Below are positions 1,462 to 8,655 of a stretch of 8,655 nt of DNA, one piece after another; within the stretch, counting starts at the first letter, position 1, and the number at the start of each line of letters is the position of its first letter. A model generated the notes under the pieces. That model was not told where the DNA came from, did no database searches, and worked only from the letters and a program-made list of their open reading frames with translations. A program made the position numbers and the translations under genes. Location of the stretch: the NCBI GenBank assembly GCA_029856525.1, contig JAHQXC010000058.1, forward strand, positions 1 through 8,655, read 5' to 3'. This DNA is from Candidatus Odinarchaeia archaeon. GTDB taxonomy: Archaea; Asgardarchaeota; Odinarchaeia; Odinarchaeales; Odinarchaeaceae.

Positions 1462-1480
1462 AAGGATTAAACCTGCCCAC
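1462..1480 (+). other. tRNA intron 1 (19 nt) at non-canonical position 34/35, inside the anticodon
   Basis: BHB geometry: central helix GGGC (1456-1459)/GCCC (1475-1478); 3-nt bulges TC|A (1460-1462) and AC|T (1479-1481); inner helix AGG/CCT with a 6-nt loop; outer pair G1455-C1482. The 33/34 alternative does not give a paired central helix. Confidence 0.85.
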
Positions 1481-1491
1481 TCGCCCCCTAG

Positions 1492-1510
1492 ATTACTGAA
1501 ATAAGGGGAT
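1492..1510 (+). other. tRNA intron 2 (19 nt) in the variable loop, position 45/46
   Basis: Relaxed BHB: central helix CCCT (1486-1489)/GGGG (1505-1508) with one G-U pair; bulge AG|A (1490-1492); inner helix TTA/TAA with a 6-nt loop; 3' site AT|A (1509-1511) with no outer helix. Removal restores the 4-nt variable loop. The 3' junction could be shifted by 1 nt. Confidence 0.75.
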
Positions 1511-1754
1511 ACTCGGGTTCAAATCCCGACCGGAGCACCATAAACCAGTTTAACCCTTTTATCTAGAGATTATTTCTTAGTCAACCACTCCTCGACTAAA
1601 GTAGAGCGTCCTCCAATAGAATATTATGAGAGAGAACTCCGACGGTTCATGTGAAAAACAAAATCGCTCTCAGAGGAAATAGGTTAATCCTTTCCAGAAT
1701 CTTCGAACAAGATTATCCTATAAAACTTTCATACACCTTATGGATTCTTTGTAT

Positions 1755-1770
1755 GTTAAAAATTTAAATA
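1755..1770 (+). promoter_or_regulatory. BRE/TATA promoter of the trp operon
   Basis: GTTAAAAA-TTTAAATA, almost identical to the rps17e promoter at 993-1007; predicts a TSS near 1792-1795. A second TTTATA at 1775-1780 is an alternative. Confidence 0.6.
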
Positions 1771-1805
1771 TTAATTTATACAGTTATTGCTATGAATAAG
1801 CGAGG

Positions 1806-3224
1806 GTGCTAAAATGGGGAATTACGTTTGGATCTAAAAAGCTTTCTAAACCAAAGCTAAAAATTGTGAAACTCACTTATATAAACTCTATAATTGATCT
1901 TTTCACAAAAATATGCCAAAATAACGAGTATGCGTATATTTTAGAATCTGTTGAAGGCTGTGAAAAACTTGCTGAATACTCTTTTATCGGCTTCGATCCC
2001 AGGATAGTGGTTACTGTAAAAGACGGGAGAGCTAAAATTCGAAATCTGGTCGAAGACGAAACTATAACTATAAATAATATTAATAACCCACTAGACGTGA
2101 TTAAAAAGCTTGTAGGCGAAGCTTACGTATCAACTGCTAAGTACAGATTAATAGGGGGGGCTGTAGGGTATATTTCTTATGACGCGGTACGCTATTGGGA
2201 GCGACTTCCTGAAATCGCCACAGATGACTTGCATCTTCCAGATTTAGAGATGGGGATCTTCGATGATGGCATAGTCTTCGATCATAAGAATAGAGAAGTA
2301 TTCTACTACTACTATGGAGAAAATCGATTATATGAAGTTTTAGCGCACGCAGGTGAAACCTCTGCTGTGGAAGCGTTCTCCTATTCTGAGCCGGAAACTA
2401 ATATTAAAAAAGAAGCTTTTGAAAACATTGTAGAGAGTGTAAAAGAATACATCAGTTCGGGTGATATTTTCCAAGCAGTTCTCTCAAAACGTTACACTCT
2501 CCGCTTCCAAGGAAGCCCCATATATTTCTACAAGGCCCTACGCAGAATCAACCCGTCTCCATACATGTACTATCTCAAAATGGGTTCCAGACAGATTATT
2601 GGCTCCAGCCCTGAGATGCTTGTAAGAGTGGAAAACGGCGTAGTTGAAACCTTCCCCATAGCTGGAACAAGACCTCGCGTCGAAGACCCGGTTAAAAACA
2701 AAATTCTTAAGCAGGAGCTGTTGAAAGACCAAAAGGAATGCGCCGAACACGTAATGCTTGTGGATTTGGCTAGAAACGATATAGGGAGAATCGCTGAATT
2801 TGGAACAGTCGAAGTTCCAGAATTTATGCGAATATATGAGTACAGTCATGTCCAACACATAGTTTCAAGAGTGATTGGTAAGTTACGAAAAGATTGCGAC
2901 TGTTATGATGCTTTAAGAGCTGTTTTCCCTGCTGGAACTGTTTCAGGAGCTCCAAAAGTGAGAGCGATGGAAATAATTGAGGAAAATGAACCTACTCGTA
3001 GAGGACCATACGCAGGGGCATTAGGCTACTTCTCATATAACGGGAACGCTGACTTCGCTATAACTATACGAACACTCGTAACGAAGGATAGTGAAGCCTA
3101 CATTCAAGCTGGTGCAGGCATCGTAGCAGAGTCCATTCCAGAAAATGAATGGTTCGAGACTGAACAAAAAGCCTCAGCTCTACTTAAGGCTTTGAAAATA
3201 GCCTCTGAAGGGGAAGGATTATGA
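1806..3224 (+). CDS. trpE: Anthranilate synthase component I
   Basis: YILESVEG (LLES Trp-feedback motif), [72 protein letters not shown]. The start codon is uncertain: GTG 1806 lies inside the SD-like motif and the next in-frame GTG is at 1866. Confidence 0.96.
1814..1837 (+). other. Candidate Trp-codon minigene / leader peptide MGNYVWI*, out of frame with trpE
   Basis: ATG GGG AAT TAC GTT TGG ATC TAA, preceded by SD-like GAGGGTG (1802-1808) with a 5-nt spacer. Whether it is translated is unproven. Confidence 0.4.
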
Positions 3225-3808
3225 AAGTTCTCATCATCGATAATTATGACTCTTTCGTATATAACCTCGTTCAGTATATCGGTGAACTCGGCTCTAAGCC
3301 GATAGTGTACCGTAATGATGAGTTAACTCTTGAGAAAGCTTTAAGGCTGAAGCCTAACAGGATAGTGATCTCCCCAGGACCGGGGACCCCTGAAGAAACT
3401 CGTTACTTTGGAGTTTGCAACCTAATTTTAAGATATATGAGCTTTAAAATTCCGACGCTAGGCGTATGTCTCGGCCACCAGGGGATAGTACACGCTTTCG
3501 GCGGAAGGATTATAAGAGCTAAGACATTAATGCACGGCAAAACTAGCCTAGTGAAACATGATGGGGAAGGAGTCTTCAAGAATATTAAAAACCCGATCCG
3601 CGCCACCAGATACCATTCACTAATAGTTGATACCACAGCTATCCCCTCATGCCTGAAAGTTACCGCTATATCATTGGATGATGGTAATGTGATGGGTGTC
3701 CGCCACGTAAGCTACCCTATCGAAGGGGTCCAATTCCATCCGGAATCTATTCTAACCGAAGATGGTAAGAAGATTCTTGAAAACTTTCTTTACGGTGATG
3801 AAAAATGA
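3221..3808 (+). CDS. trpG: Anthranilate synthase component II (class I glutamine amidotransferase)
   Basis: IIDNYDSFVYNL, ISPGPG, GVCLGHQ (catalytic Cys), RYHSL, QFHPES (His/Glu of the triad). ATGA overlap with trpE. Confidence 0.97.
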   Translation: MKVLIIDNYDSFVYNLVQYIGELGSKPIVYRNDELTLEKALRLKPNRIVISPGPGTPEETRYFGVCNLILRYMSFKIPTLGVCLGHQGIVHAFGGRIIRAKTLMHGKTSLVKHDGEGVFKNIKNPIRATRYHSLIVDTTAIPSCLKVTAISLDDGNVMGVRHVSYPIEGVQFHPESILTEDGKKILENFLYGDEK

Positions 3809-4878
3809 TACAGGAAGTTATACAGCGACTGGTAGAAGGGGAAAACCTCACTTCCACAGAAGCCTCCGAGACCATGGAGGCTATAATGAAAGGGGAGGTT
3901 ACTTCTACACAGATAGGCGCCTTACTAACAGCCCTAAGAATAAAGGGCGAAACTGTAGAGGAGATTACAGCATTCGCCAATGTGATGAGAAGATTATGTC
4001 TTAGAATAAAGCCACGGGTTAAAGGCCGGCTTGTAGATATATGTGGAACCGGGGGGGACCGCGTAAAAACTTTTAATGTTAGCACCACAGCCGCCTTCGT
4101 AGTTGCTGGTGCAGGTATATCTGTCGCCAAGCATGGCAACCGTTCAGTTACAAGTAAAAGCGGCAGCGCTGACGTCTTAGAAAAACTAGGGTTAAATTTG
4201 AATACACCGCCTAAAAAAGTTGAAGAAGCCATAGAAAAAATTGGAATATGCTTCATGTTCGCCCCTGTGTTTCACCCAGCCATGAGGTATGTGACAGGAC
4301 CTAGGCGAGAGCTTGGTATAAGAACCGTCTTCAATATTCTAGGTCCTTTAACTAATCCCGCTTTCGCTAACGCTCAGGTGGTAGGTGTCTACGATCTCTC
4401 TTTAGTAGAAAAAATAGCAGAAGTACTTAAGAGCCTAAATCTTGAGGAAGCTATGGTGGTCCATGGAATGGATGGGCTTGACGAAATATCAATTATCGGA
4501 AAAACTAGGATAGCGTGGCTGAAAAATGGAGAAATTAAAACTTTTGAAGTATCACCTGAAGATTTTGGTATCCAGAAAGCGACTTTAGAAGAAATTATCG
4601 GAGGAGAACCTGAAAAAAGCGCAGAACTAACCTTCAAAATTCTTACAAACAAATTGAATGAAAATGATCCAAAAATGAAGATGGTCCTTGTGAATGCTGC
4701 AGCAGGTATAATAGTAGGTGGAAAAGCTGATGACTTCGATTATGCAATGGAAGTTGCCAAAGAATCTATTAAAAGCAGAGCCGCTTACCTCAAATTAAAG
4801 AATTTAGTTAAATTTTGTGGGGAGAGTAACGTAGAAAAACTTGAAGAGTTGGAGACCAGATATGAGCGACTACCTTGA
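3805..4878 (+). CDS. trpD: Anthranilate phosphoribosyltransferase
   Basis: DICGTGGD, FNVST, KHGNRSVTSKSGSADVLE, FAPVFHPAM, RTVFNILGPLTNP, VHGMDGLDE. SD GGTGA at 3794-3798 and ATGA overlap with trpG. Confidence 0.98.
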   Translation: MIQEVIQRLVEGENLTSTEASETMEAIMKGEVTSTQIGALLTALRIKGETVEEITAFANVMRRLCLRIKPRVKGRLVDICGTGGDRVKTFNVSTTAAFVVAGAGISVAKHGNRSVTSKSGSADVLEKLGLNLNTPPKKVEEAIEKIGICFMFAPVFHPAMRYVTGPRRELGIRTVFNILGPLTNPAFANAQVVGVYDLSLVEKIAEVLKSLNLEEAMVVHGMDGLDEISIIGKTRIAWLKNGEIKTFEVSPEDFGIQKATLEEIIGGEPEKSAELTFKILTNKLNENDPKMKMVLVNAAAGIIVGGKADDFDYAMEVAKESIKSRAAYLKLKNLVKFCGESNVEKLEELETRYERLP

Positions 4879-5647
4879 CATCTTGGCCCAAGAAGCCTTG
4901 AAAACTGTGGAATCAGGGTACTATACAGTGAGCTTTAGAAAAACAATTTATAGACGAAAAAATAGTCTCAAGAAAGCGATACTTCAATGCAAGCACGCGC
5001 CGGTGATCGCGGAGATAAAACCTTCGTCACCGTTTAAAGGCAAACTTAGACAAATAAACAACCCTATTGAAGTTGCAGAAGCCATACTTCGAGCCGGAGC
5101 CGTAGGCATATCCGTTCTCACCGAGCCCAAATACTTCAATGGTTCACTCGAGATTTTAGCTAAAGTATGTGAACACGTGGAGGCGCCGATTTTAATGAAA
5201 GATATAATTGTAGACCCTATTCAATTGAAGGCAGCATATAAAGCTGGAGCTCACATAGTCCTATTAATCTCCCAAATATTCAACAGAGGATATGGTAAAC
5301 TCCCTCTAAGTGAAATGATCAAGGAGGCTCATAGGTTAGGCCTTGAAGTTCTCCTTGAAACTCACACTATAGAAGAGTTCACTGTAGCCCTTAAAACAGA
5401 TGCTGATCTCATAGGAATAAATAACAGGGATTTGTCAACCTTGAATGTAGATCTTACTGTTACGGAGAGTATTCTAGCCAACGTTAACCCTGAAGGTAGA
5501 ATAGTGATAAGCGAAAGTGGCATTCAAACCCCTGAGGATATACGATGGTTAACACGTTTGGGTGCAAAGGCTTTTTTGGTTGGCTCTGCTGTGATGAAAG
5601 CTGAAAACATGGAAAAAAAACTTATGGAGCTTGTAACCGCCCTATGA
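4862..5647 (+). CDS. trpC: Indole-3-glycerol phosphate synthase
   Basis: VIAEIKPSSP, SVLTEPKYFNGS, LMKDII, LLETH, GINNRDL, ISESGI, LVGSAVM. Start moved from the track's 4841 to the in-frame ATG 4862 (MSDYLDIL), which has GGAG at 4851-4854 and overlaps the trpD end by 17 nt. Confidence 0.95.
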   Translation: MSDYLDILAQEALKTVESGYYTVSFRKTIYRRKNSLKKAILQCKHAPVIAEIKPSSPFKGKLRQINNPIEVAEAILRAGAVGISVLTEPKYFNGSLEILAKVCEHVEAPILMKDIIVDPIQLKAAYKAGAHIVLLISQIFNRGYGKLPLSEMIKEAHRLGLEVLLETHTIEEFTVALKTDADLIGINNRDLSTLNVDLTVTESILANVNPEGRIVISESGIQTPEDIRWLTRLGAKAFLVGSAVMKAENMEKKLMELVTAL

Positions 5648-6303
5648 GAAGAGTAAGAGTTAAGATCTGTGGAATAACACGAATAGAGGATTTGAAGGCA
5701 GCTTGCAGTTTGGGCACTGACGCGGTAGGTTTCATTGTAGATGCCCCCAAATCGCCTAGAAACTTATCTCTTGAAGCTGCTAAGAAACTTATAACTGCGG
5801 TGCCTATATTCGTTAAAACAGTACTTGTCACTGTTCTAAAGGATCCTGAAAGAATTGTAAGTCTTTATGAAAGTCTTAAACCTGATGTAATCCAAGTTCA
5901 CGGCGGGAATTTAGAGATGATTAGAATTTTAAAAAGAATTCTCCCTGAAGCCCGTTTAATTGGCACAGTGCCGATTAAATCCGAAGCTGAAATTCAAACT
6001 ATTGTGAAACTCACACAATTTTTCGATGCTATTCTTGTTGACTCTTATGTAGCTGATAAATTTGGGGGCACGGGGGTAACCCATGATTGGCGTATAACTG
6101 CGTGTATAAGAGATGCATTGTATCCTAAACCTTTAATACTTGCTGGTGGATTAAAACCAGAAAACGTTAAGGAAGCAATTAGAATAGTAAGGCCTTATGC
6201 TGTTGACGTCTCCTCGGGTGTGGAGGTGAAGCCGGGGTTGAAGGACCCGGAGAAGATTAAAACCTTCATAGAAGCTGTAAACTCCATTTCGATTCAGGAT
6301 TAA
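5644..6303 (+). CDS. trpF: Phosphoribosylanthranilate isomerase
   Basis: VKICGIT, DAVGFI, SPRNL, IQVHG, LVDS, GGTGVTHDW, LAGGLKPENV, AVDVSSGVE. ATGA overlap with trpC. Confidence 0.97.
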   Translation: MRRVRVKICGITRIEDLKAACSLGTDAVGFIVDAPKSPRNLSLEAAKKLITAVPIFVKTVLVTVLKDPERIVSLYESLKPDVIQVHGGNLEMIRILKRILPEARLIGTVPIKSEAEIQTIVKLTQFFDAILVDSYVADKFGGTGVTHDWRITACIRDALYPKPLILAGGLKPENVKEAIRIVRPYAVDVSSGVEVKPGLKDPEKIKTFIEAVNSISIQD

Positions 6304-6315
6304 GGAGGGCGATAA

Positions 6316-7485
6316 ATGAAGGGTAGGTTCGGGATATATGGTGGTCAATATGTGAGCGAGATCCTTATGCACGCCCTTATAGAGTTGGAAGAAGCTTTCG
6401 AGAAAATCTACCCGAGCCAAGAATTTCAGGGAGAATTTCAAGAGCTACTCAGAAATTATGCCGGTAGACCGACGCCCCTTTATTATGCTAGAAACTTCAG
6501 CACGCTTGTTGGCTTCAAAGTTTACCTTAAAAGAGAAGATATGGTTTGCGGAGGATCTCATAAACTTAACAATGCTCTTGGACAGGCTCTGTTAGCTAAA
6601 AAGATGGGGAAGAAACGGCTGATCACCGAAACCGCGGCTGGACAGCACGGGCTCGCCACGGTTATGGCAGGGAATATCTGCGAATTAAAAACAGAGATTT
6701 TCATGGGTGTAAAAGATATTCAGCGGCAAGCCGCTAACGTTAAAAAAATGAAACTTTTAGGCGCCAAGATAAAACCTGTAAAAATCGGCGCCGGAGTTCT
6801 AAAAGATGCGGTCTCCGAAACTTTAAGAGAGTGGGCGGCTTGTTCCAGAACAACCCACTATCTTATGGGTTCAACTGTTGGACCGCACCCGTTCCCCATT
6901 ATTGTGGCTACTTTTCAAGGTGTAATAGGGAGAGAAATTAGAGAGCAGATCTTAGAGAAAGAGGGGCGGCTTCCAGACGCCATAGTTGCCTGCGGGAGTG
7001 GAGGAAGTAATGCCCTAGGCGCTTTCAAAGCCTTTATCGAGGAAGAGAATGTTAGACTATATTTTGTTGAAGGTGGCGGGGAGAGTCTTGAATCAGAAAA
7101 CAGCGCAGCGGCTTTTCAGCTTGGAAGACCGGGAGTTCTCCACGGAAGCTTAATGCAAGTTATGCAGGATCCATACGGTCAAATAAAACCTTCGAAGACT
7201 AGAAGCGCAGGCTTAAACTATCCTGGAAGAGGGCCTGAAATCTCCTATTTATGCGAGATTGGAAGGATCAAAGCGTGTTATTCCTTTGATAATGAAGTCT
7301 TCGATGCGGTGAAGGTTATGGCTAGAACTGAGGGGCTTATTCCAGCTTTAGAAACAGCTCATGCTATAGCATATGTTCTTAATCACAGAGAGGAGTTCAG
7401 CCCTGGGGACATAGTTGTAATCAATTATTCTGGGAGGGGTGATAAAGATATGGAAACCATTCTGAGGTATTTTTATGAAGCTTGA
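6316..7485 (+). CDS. trpB: Tryptophan synthase beta chain, TrpB1-type, with divergent motifs
   Basis: GRPTPL, KRED...SHK (PLP Lys83), ETAAGQHG (Glu105), GPHPFP, GGSNA, SAGLNYPG, EGLIPALE, SGRGDKD. SD GGAGG at 6304-6308. The 389-aa length and motifs fit TrpB1 rather than the longer TrpB2. Confidence 0.96.
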   Translation: MKGRFGIYGGQYVSEILMHALIELEEAFEKIYPSQEFQGEFQELLRNYAGRPTPLYYARNFSTLVGFKVYLKREDMVCGGSHKLNNALGQALLAKKMGKKRLITETAAGQHGLATVMAGNICELKTEIFMGVKDIQRQAANVKKMKLLGAKIKPVKIGAGVLKDAVSETLREWAACSRTTHYLMGSTVGPHPFPIIVATFQGVIGREIREQILEKEGRLPDAIVACGSGGSNALGAFKAFIEEENVRLYFVEGGGESLESENSAAAFQLGRPGVLHGSLMQVMQDPYGQIKPSKTRSAGLNYPGRGPEISYLCEIGRIKACYSFDNEVFDAVKVMARTEGLIPALETAHAIAYVLNHREEFSPGDIVVINYSGRGDKDMETILRYFYEA

Positions 7486-8308
7486 AGAATTATTCAACGC
7501 AGTTAGGGCGCGCGGAGAAGGCGCACACATGGCTCATGTCTATTACGGAGATCCATGCGAAGATTTCTCTATAAAACTTATAGAAACTCTAGCCGAAAAC
7601 GGCGCAGACATCATAGAATTTGGCATTCCCTTTTCAGATCCCATAGCAGACGGTGCAATCTTTCAAGCAGCATGTGAAAGAGCTTTAAAAGCCGGCGTAA
7701 CACCAGCTAAATGCATAGAAGGGATAAAAAAGCTAAGAGATAGAGGGTTAAAAACACCAGTAATCCTAACTACGTACTTTAACATTGTATACAATATGGG
7801 TCTCGTGAATTTTCTAAATAAAGCCAAAGATGCTGGTGTTCAAGGCGTTTTAATCCCAGATCTTCCAATCGAAGAGGCGCAGCCTCTACTGGAGCTCACT
7901 CGGAAACTAGGCTTACATCTAATACTTCAGGTGGCGCCTACAACCTCTAGGGAAAGGCTCAGCCGAATCCTGGCAGAGGCTTCAGGCTTCATATATCTTA
8001 TAGGTCTAGAGGGTGTAACTGGTTCCAAGTTTAGAAGTAAAAAGACTACGGCCACTCTCATAGAGAAGGTTAAAGCGGAAACAAATATACCAGTAATGGT
8101 TGGCTTCGGAATATCCAAGCGGGAGCATGCTGAAACCCTAATAGCGGCGGGTGCGGATGGAGTAGTTGTAGGAAGCGCATACGCTCGAATATATGCGGTG
8201 AATATCACAAACCCCTTCGAAAGATTATCTGAAATAGCTAGGCTAGCCAGAGAGATAAAACTCGGCTGTATTAGAGGACAGAAAATAAAATTGAATGTTA
8301 GCCTTTAA
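7475..8308 (+). CDS. trpA: Tryptophan synthase alpha chain
   Basis: GADIIEFGIPFSDPIADG (catalytic Glu48/Asp59), PDLP, APTT, GFIY, GVTG, VGFGIS, GADGVVVGSA. 11-nt overlap with trpB. Confidence 0.96.
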   Translation: MKLEELFNAVRARGEGAHMAHVYYGDPCEDFSIKLIETLAENGADIIEFGIPFSDPIADGAIFQAACERALKAGVTPAKCIEGIKKLRDRGLKTPVILTTYFNIVYNMGLVNFLNKAKDAGVQGVLIPDLPIEEAQPLLELTRKLGLHLILQVAPTTSRERLSRILAEASGFIYLIGLEGVTGSKFRSKKTTATLIEKVKAETNIPVMVGFGISKREHAETLIAAGADGVVVGSAYARIYAVNITNPFERLSEIARLAREIKLGCIRGQKIKLNVSL

Positions 8309-8406
8309 TTTCAGATATATAAGAAAGTCGGATTAGTTAGAAATCTATTCTACCGGATACCTGCAATCGGTGGAAGAGCGCGCCGCTAGGTTTTCTAGAA
8401 GACTGC

Positions 8407-8450
8407 TATTCTTCCTCCTTCGTATTTCACCGATTTTTTCTTCATTATTT
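8407..8450 (+). terminator. Possible archaeal pyrimidine/oligo-T terminator region of the trp operon
   Basis: Pyrimidine-rich tract TATTCTTCCTCCTTCGTATTTCACCGATTTTTTCTTC with a T6 run at 8434-8439, about 100-130 nt after the trpA stop. Confidence 0.35.
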
Positions 8451-8655
8451 ATAGTATAAAAAGCGCTCAGCTATTTTTTATGAAGAGAATGCTCTAAGAG
8501 TATTTTAAATCTAGTAATCTAGTTATAATTAGTTAACTGTTTATGAGGCTGGATCTAGAACGGTAATAGATTGGCGATATTTGAGATTAATTGATCTATG
8601 TTTACACCAGCCCAGTTTAAAATATTTATCACTAATATTATTAGCAGTGCTATCG

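Follow-up and report, generated by a model that had tools for sequence, protein, structure and literature searches.

A candidate tryptophan-sensing +1 ribosomal frameshift at the start of trpE in archaeal trp operons

Introduction

The closest described counterparts of the element considered here are +1 ribosomal frameshift sites, among them that of yeast Ty1, which reads CUU_AGG_C. In prfB, the gene for release factor 2, an autoregulatory +1 frameshift site, CUU_UGA_C, is accompanied by an upstream Shine-Dalgarno (SD)-like AGGGGG (PMC12421855). Shifts at hungry codons are treated as starvation errors of unclear natural significance in a 2016 review of recoding, in which no natural regulatory use of hungry-codon shifting is described (PMC5009743). 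For archaea, a 2021 review names the -1 event of fucA1 as the single frameshift demonstrated in a cellular gene and lists no +1 case of this kind (PMC8211752), and transcription of archaeal trp operons is controlled by TrpY in Methanothermobacter and by Tar in Thermococcus, with Crenarchaeota mostly lacking both regulators and a third mechanism being possible (PMC6737238). Here we evaluate the start of the trpE gene in an 8,655-bp stretch of archaeal DNA (the window), which is the whole of contig C99 of a 1.32-Mb metagenome-assembled genome (MAG), and we propose, with moderate confidence as far as this window is concerned, that TrpE is made via a programmed +1 ribosomal frameshift at an NUU_UGG sequence doubling as a tryptophan (Trp) sensor. 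Our confidence is higher for the more general statement, drawn from comparison of many loci, that recoding would be the common route to TrpE in the clade.

Results

A short leader out of frame with trpE

The trp operon of the window opens with an SD motif and an ATG whose frame is not that of trpE. The initial annotation had reported a GAGGGTG at 1802-1808, 5 nucleotides (nt) before an ATG at 1814 that encodes MGNYVWI out of frame with trpE, and the sequence is exactly so. The features at this start are:

1802-1808, plus strand: Shine-Dalgarno GAGGGTG serving ATG 1814 across a 5-nt spacer; its duplex with the 3' tail of the genome's own 16S rRNA (GGAUCACCUCCU) is calculated at -7.8 kcal/mol.
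1814-1837, plus strand: zero-frame leader open reading frame (ORF) encoding MGNYVWI, with ATG at 1814-1816, Trp codon at 1829-1831 and TAA at 1835-1837.
1815-1825, plus strand: internal SD-like stretch (UGGGGAAUUAC), a possible prfB-like stimulator, weak in the window.
1826-1832, plus strand: proposed +1 shift site GUU_UGG_A, with TTTGG shared by all sequences of alignment A1; the mechanism is proposed by analogy with prfB (PMC12421855).
1830-3224, plus strand: trpE as read at +1, beginning with the codon that would follow the slip; Pfam Anth_synt_I_N and Chorismate_bind.

The leader reads ATG GGG AAT TAC GTT TGG ATC TAA, and the trpE frame, which is that of GTG 1806 (1806, 1815, 1827, 1830), lies at +1 relative to ATG 1814. 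GAGGGTG is a credible SD because the genome's own 16S rRNA ends in GGAUCACCUCCU, and the earlier proposal that this SD-led ATG is the ribosome entry point gains support from the conserved layout described below.

In the mechanism we favor, the ribosome would bind the SD at 1802-1808, start at ATG 1814 and read GGG AAT TAC GTT, which would bring GUU into the P site and the single Trp codon of the leader, UGG, into the A site. With charged tRNA-Trp plentiful, UGG would be read and the stop two codons on would release MGNYVWI, yielding no TrpE and little of the coupled downstream enzymes. With tRNA-Trp scarce, the A site would stand empty and the P-site tRNA-Val could re-pair from GUU to UUU, such that GGA 1830 would be read next and translation would continue in the trpE frame. 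The product would be 469 amino acids long, with MGNYV running into GSKKLSK..., and its similarity to solved TrpE/PabB chains starts at residue 19 after the slip.

We scanned the whole 1.32-Mb genome with relaxed settings (ATG, 1-12 codons, NTT-TGG, a stop within 30 codons and a +1 ORF of at least 150 codons), and since this gave only 3 matches, the combination of leader and +1 frame exceeds chance. Of the two other matches, one is a purA-like gene with an ordinary TTG start and the other an internal site in an ORF resembling glutamine synthetase, leaving trpE as the only one that qualifies. Among genes for other aromatic amino acids, the search covered pheA (PF00800) and tyrA (PF02153) in five Bathyarchaeia genomes, where the device was not found and both genes have ordinary in-frame starts within operons. 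The Trp codon of the leader also belongs to an operon that uses few of them: the seven Trp enzymes, which the initial annotation had rightly called Trp-poor, contain 7 Trp in 2157 codons (0.32%, versus 0.87% TGG in the long ORFs of this genome).

The layout recurs in relatives at a fixed +1 offset

For comparison, we gathered 80 trpE loci from genomes (one genome per species) and 80 from metagenome contigs. The layout of ATG, 12 nt, TGG and trpE at +1 was found in 55 of about 69 archaeal genome trpE loci and in 71 of 77 informative metagenome loci, for a total of 126 loci that make up 110 distinct 150-nt contexts, with carriers in Bathyarchaeia, Nitrosocaldus and one other thaumarchaeal MAG. 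Across these 126 loci trpE always lies at +1, the U-ending codon before TGG and the early stop recur, and the leader ORFs are 7-22 codons long and fit M-[G/R]-x-x-[L/V/I]-W. The TGG had been singled out beforehand as a candidate point of Trp sensing, a proposal that by its own terms would have failed if relatives lacked the ATG, TGG or stop, and the retention of ATG, TGG at codon 6, stop and offset in all 126 loci with an out-of-frame start suggests that it is functional; among the loci examined, no out-of-frame start with a different sixth codon was found.

The comparison shows a conserved anatomy at the nucleotide level as well, with the consensus ATG, G/A-G-G/T, six bases, N-T-T, T-G-G, and with ATG, one G and TTTGG as the sole invariant columns near the start in alignment A1. 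The P-site codon is CTT in 81 contexts, GTT in 25 and ATT in 4, making NTT-TGG uniform (110/110). Translation upstream of the aligned TrpE N-terminus gave a conserved K-W-G-I-A-F-G in the trpE frame, often with a stop directly 5' of it. A GGAG, GGAAG or GGAGGT motif stands 5-10 nt before the ATG in most relatives, with none in a few (e.g., L074 and L121).

A conserved offset bears on whether the +1 relation might be an artefact, that is, an assembly indel in the G run at 1816-1819 (which the initial annotation had named as a way for its own proposal to fail) or the mark of a decaying trpE that is no longer expressed. Such a reading would suit a MAG contig that was compared with assembled contigs only and whose operon is a strain-variable insert (see below). 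An independent Logan contig of run X1, however, shows 0 differences from the window across 1629-2100, none of the seven trp ORFs is disrupted and their Pfam matches are full-length, and the +1 offset is common to 126 loci drawn from many studies and sequencing technologies. A look-up of sequencing runs containing this stretch listed no RNA run. Because the offset recurs across these loci, a local assembly error is excluded as a general explanation; we regard an error in the G run as unlikely and the artefact or decay reading as a whole as hardly credible.

Turning to the history of the motif, a TrpE tree places the window as sister to L016, which carries the motif, in a small clade whose other members are L017 and L020 (motif) and L018 and L019 (leader in frame). 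On this tree the motif spans Bathyarchaeia and Nitrososphaerota and at least 4 changes are needed, which were probably losses. Nine metagenome loci at 70-76% identity to the window all carry it. Two loci have the leader in frame with TrpE: in L019 (2947-2970) M-R-N-N-I-W runs straight into TrpE, and in L034 (2935-2960, MGNRLC-STQ...) one G of the TGG is absent relative to its sister L039. These may be natural losses of the frameshift requirement, or assembly errors.

Many relatives offer no other start for trpE

The initial annotation had interpreted MGNYVWI as a regulatory minigene, meaning a separate upstream ORF at whose TGG a stalled ribosome would modulate initiation or reinitiation of a TrpE starting at GTG 1866 or GTG 1806. 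Both of these in-frame GTGs are present in the window, and a product started at GTG 1866 would be complete, given that structural similarity begins after that point. Across relatives, however, in 57 of the 110 contexts the first ATG, GTG or TTG of the trpE frame comes no earlier than 22 codons after the site, by which point the conserved fold has begun (at least 50 codons in 52 contexts, and up to ~150). Resemblance to solved TrpE/PabB structures sets in ~19 residues beyond the site, and since the start-free span reaches beyond that point, those TrpE proteins could not come from an internal start. Given these 57 contexts, independent initiation of trpE cannot, on the sequence comparison, be the common mechanism, and the gating of a separate trpE start by the minigene is not supported as a general account. 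In about a fifth of the contexts (~21), the ATG is followed by A (codon 2 AGG), so the trpE frame reads TGA there. In many relatives, the columns PLKIKKI...PLEIFSK combine low second-position with high third-position entropy, a protein-coding pattern in the trpE frame 5' of any canonical start. Some loci do have in-frame ATGs further upstream; these lie ~10-14 nt after the TATA box, 5' of the predicted transcript start, and genomes differ in the frame that they occupy relative to trpE.

Closer to the window the same contrast is seen. L097, a member of its subclade whose TrpE is 72% identical to that of the window, has no in-frame start for 73 codons. GTG 1866 is likewise not supported as a conserved start: apart from the window, L016/L096 alone have GTG at this Val codon, with GTA, GTT or GCA in the other subclade members. 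No SD-like motif precedes GTG 1866, whereas GTG 1806 lies inside the SD itself, ~12 nt from the predicted transcript start. The minigene reading finds some support in the GUU lineages, where 13 of 25 distinct contexts have an in-frame ATG or GTG at leader nt 11-13, giving RUG UUU GG, such that canonical starts overlapping the site are used or tolerated in some lineages. In these contexts GTT is preceded by a codon ending in AT or GT, and the possible start, 10 nt past the leader ATG, has the internal SD-like stretch 4 nt to its 5' side; direct initiation of TrpE may therefore partly replace or supplement the slip in some GUU lineages. The window has ACG at leader nt 11-13 and so no overlapping in-frame start. 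Loci with such a start are L020, L060, L098-L100, L109-L112, L115, L117-L119, L121, L122, L161 and L175.

Two further points concern regulation. Reinitiation after termination at the leader stop would produce more TrpE at high Trp, which is the wrong sign, and the hairpins that accompanied the minigene proposal are not significant. The two arm pairs exist as the initial annotation wrote them; neither is significant or conserved. The 82 nt from 1794 to 1875 fold with a minimum free energy of -9.5 kcal/mol against a shuffle mean of -11.4 kcal/mol (z = +0.72), no better than shuffles, and relatives have an A/C-rich variable linker in this place, so that the hairpin model was dropped. With no U tract and no significant fold, classical attenuation is unlikely, as had been stated at the outset. 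We consider the minigene unlikely overall and prefer a frameshift at the TGG, as this explains the same facts by one mechanism and has the right regulatory sign, with low Trp-tRNA favoring the slip and hence TrpE.

The linker itself, 20-60 nt past the shift site, is almost free of G and T in relatives and encodes a Thr/Gln/Pro/Lys-rich sequence. Its length changes by whole codons only, with the +1 relation kept. That of the window is short and Lys-rich instead.

Codon usage at the site points to selection on nucleotides

We compared codon choice at the site with that elsewhere in the same ORFs. The Phe codon in the trpE frame is TTT in 110 of 110 contexts (42% TTT elsewhere) and the Gly codon read after the slip is GGC in 86% (37% elsewhere), with C following TGG in 95 of the 110. 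Within the leader, codon 2 is GGG in 85 of 110 contexts (77%, versus 9% of Gly codons elsewhere), and codon 3, an NAY codon, ends in T (leader position 9) in 103 of 106, versus 39% usage. Because these choices depart so far from those in the same ORFs, they point to selection on the nucleotides themselves and not on either peptide.

Part of this pattern coincides with a predicted pairing between leader and ribosome. In the 55 loci scored, the predicted duplex between leader nt 2-12 and the 16S tail has a median energy of -6.7 kcal/mol. This ranks within the top 4% of the 11-nt windows taken from the same ORFs and equals many initiation SDs in strength. This G-rich stretch after the ATG may thus act as an internal stimulator of the kind known from prfB. 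In L016, the sister of the window, the pairing reaches -11.3 kcal/mol.

The sixth codon is UGG in all 110 contexts and never a rare codon or a stop, and since this is true across two classes, Bathyarchaeia and Nitrososphaerota, it argues that the identity of the Trp codon matters, and not merely a pause. The same observations bear on a constitutive +1 frameshift without Trp sensing, in which TrpE would be held at a fixed low level and UGG would be kept because the overlapping trpE frame needs Phe-Gly. The trpE frame does contain an invariant Phe-Gly. Its Phe is without exception encoded by TTT though TTC is commoner, however, which indicates that UGG is preserved and not just Phe; no rare codon or stop ever takes the place of UGG, and the gene under control encodes the first enzyme of Trp synthesis. 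A constitutive slip is, in our assessment, rather improbable.

Recoding could also take place elsewhere in the leader, by a slip or quadruplet reading at AUG_GGG_A right after initiation, with Gly-Ile-x-Phe-Gly read in the trpE frame. This would fit with the variable leader positions 7 and 10 being third positions in the trpE frame and with positions 8-9 (AU) being nearly fixed. Nitrosocaldus and UBA141, however, have ATG GGT GGA and no G run, the same fixed bases fit the SD-like pairing with the 16S tail, and L019 and L034 fuse the leader's own peptide to TrpE; furthermore, an early slip would leave the invariant TTT and UGG unexplained. We therefore view it as very unlikely and place the slip, provisionally, at NUU_UGG.

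Weighing the frameshift model in the window

Several observations speak against a Trp-sensing slip at NUU_UGG, in general or in this window. At the level of the whole data set, the motif search itself required TTTGG; leader positions 5-10 also resemble a conserved Gly-Ile in the trpE frame, which makes an earlier slip thinkable; the in-frame starts in 13 of the 25 GUU contexts may offer another way into trpE in some lineages; and L019, unless misassembled, retains its Trp codon in frame, something not expected under a pure sensor model. In the window, the in-frame GTG 1806 and GTG 1866 mean that a frameshift is not strictly forced, the P-site codon is the minority form GUU, whose tRNA would mismatch UUU at the first position, and the base after UGG is A where C is usual. 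Its internal SD-like pairing with the 16S tail is modest, at -5.5 kcal/mol (top 11.5%). The window is thus a weaker specimen of the layout, and it is with these points included that we hold the full model to be probable here.

Operon structure, promoter and genomic setting

Downstream of trpE, the operon continues as:

3221-8308, plus strand: trpG, trpD, trpC, trpF, trpB and trpA (ORF coordinates and Pfam families).

At five of the six gene junctions, that of trpE and trpG included, the gene overlaps the one upstream. Judging from these overlapping stops and starts, translation of the downstream Trp enzymes is probably coupled to that of TrpE, which could set the translation of the whole operon.

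The promoter is predicted from an element shared with relatives:

1763-1770, plus strand: predicted TATA box of the trp operon promoter (TTTAAATA), matching an AGCC/TTAAATA(A) element in relatives.

In nearly all aligned relatives, the ATG follows this AGCC/TTAAATA(A) element at a distance of 41-47 nt. With the usual archaeal promoter geometry (TATA centered ~26 nt upstream), transcripts would start near 1792-1797 and carry a 5' untranslated region of ~20 nt. Directly 5' of AGCC-TTAAATAA, relatives have palindromic boxes (TGTACA, 5 nt, GTACA; alignment A1 columns 4-36; e.g., L025:2862-2900 and L016:2874-2915), which are degenerate in the window (1741-1757). In main-clade relatives (e.g., L031:2895-2930), an inverted repeat seen by eye (ATGCTTC, ~10 nt, GGAGCAT/GAAGCAT) encloses the SD, in a register that differs between lineages; because its 5' arm probably precedes the transcript start, it may be a DNA operator and not an RNA hairpin. 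No TrpY-like regulator gene was found beside the operon upstream in the loci of eight relatives, a genome-wide search for TrpY/Tar not having been made, and the upstream neighbors in relatives' loci encode CutA1, LarA, an IS200 transposase, a hemerythrin protein and a cation-transporting P-type ATPase, with no regulators among them.

The 5' part of the window contains a ThiS-like gene, an unnamed ORF and rpS17e (ORF list and Pfam), followed by an intron-bearing tRNA gene at 1425-1537, a 270-nt spacer and the complete trpE-G-D-C-F-B-A operon at 1806-8308. The tRNA gene with its intervening sequence scored 39.1 bits with Rfam and was missed by Aragorn; its unspliced anticodon loop reads CAA by eye. 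An Rfam scan of positions 1-2600 found only this tRNA, plus one sub-threshold chance match.

Comparison with another contig of the same MAG, C60, which represents a co-assembled strain, delimits the operon as a unit:

1687-8526, plus strand: strain-variable 6.84-kb insert holding promoter, leader and seven trp genes.

C60 (positions 1-342) joins window positions 1465-1686 directly to 8527-8655 at 97% identity. Similarly, in three congeneric genomes the left flank (72-80%) and the tRNA (90-97%) are followed by a homologue of 8556-8655, and these genomes have no trpE. Because C60 and these three genomes join the flanks without the operon, the gain or loss involved a single 6.84-kb unit made up of promoter, leader and seven genes. 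The insert is flanked by imperfect 10-bp direct repeats (AAATAGGTTA and AATTAGTTAA), has a GC content of 41.8% (versus 38.5% for the genome), begins ~150 nt downstream of the tRNA gene and carries no integrase.

Discussion

A broader picture can be put forward, on which we are evenly divided: many Thermoproteota archaea would control Trp synthesis by a hungry-codon +1 frameshift in which tRNA-Trp charging sets the frame of trpE, a kind of amino-acid sensing for which no natural example is described. The device would move with the operon as a self-contained cassette, comprising the promoter, the leader and all seven genes, that arrived here as the 6.84-kb insert. New in this analysis are the observation that GUU variants often create an in-frame start, the internal SD-like element and the trp operon as a strain-variable insert. 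No report of trpE frameshifting or of a Trp-sensing frameshift was found in the literature searched, subscription journals being largely outside it. If the model is true, this would be the first natural amino-acid sensor to act by a change of reading frame, a very compact one at ~35 nt, and a third answer to Trp control in TACK archaea, which mostly lack TrpY and Tar (PMC6737238). There is also a practical consequence, as gene callers relying on standard start codons would be expected to truncate or mis-start trpE in these genomes.

Among known systems, prfB is alike in construction. Both have a split-gene layout in which a short zero-frame ORF ends soon after the site and a long ORF follows at +1 (in the window and the 126 loci), and both place an NUU_U codon, putatively slippery in trpE, in the P site; in trpE this is CUU in 81 of 110 contexts and GUU in 25 of 110, as in the window. 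In both, the A-site codon is slowly decoded in a manner that depends on the end product, as we propose for trpE. C follows the A-site codon in 86% of trpE contexts, so that the heptamer CUU_UGG_C is CUU_UGA_C with UGG for UGA; trpE leaders have a G-rich SD-like stretch upstream, a candidate counterpart of the internal SD of prfB, and, as with prfB, the motif has probably been lost in lineages with an in-frame gene. Unlike prfB, trpE has a sense codon, UGG for Trp, in the A site in every context where prfB has the stop UGA, and its device would sense a charged tRNA and not a protein factor, in an archaeal host. The trpE site also lies at codons 5-6, right after initiation, whereas that of Escherichia coli prfB lies at codons 25-26, and its G run ends 6 nt before the P-site codon rather than 3 nt; the window further departs in having GUU and A for CUU and C. 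The trpE site would work like prfB but is not a member of the prfB family.

With hungry-codon and Ty1 shifting, the model shares a +1 slip in which peptidyl-tRNA-Leu moves off CUU when the A site holds a sense codon whose tRNA is in short supply. Ty1, however, relies on a constitutively rare tRNA and the trpE model on amino-acid supply, and unlike hungry-codon errors the trpE shift would be how an essential biosynthetic enzyme is normally made. As in bacterial trpL attenuation, a short ORF with a Trp codon stands ahead of trpE and the speed of the ribosome there would report the supply of Trp-tRNA. Unlike trpL, the leader has one Trp codon and not a tandem, overlaps trpE out of frame, and lacks terminator, antiterminator, U tract and significant structure, its output being a reading frame and not transcription. 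As for the archaeal regulators, the palindromic boxes of relatives lie just 5' of the B recognition element (BRE)/TATA, in the same place as the Tar site TGGACA-N8-TGTCCA, whereas unlike the TrpY and Tar systems there is no regulator gene beside the operon and the boxes are degenerate in the window. The frameshift could be the third mechanism of archaeal Trp control, or part of it.

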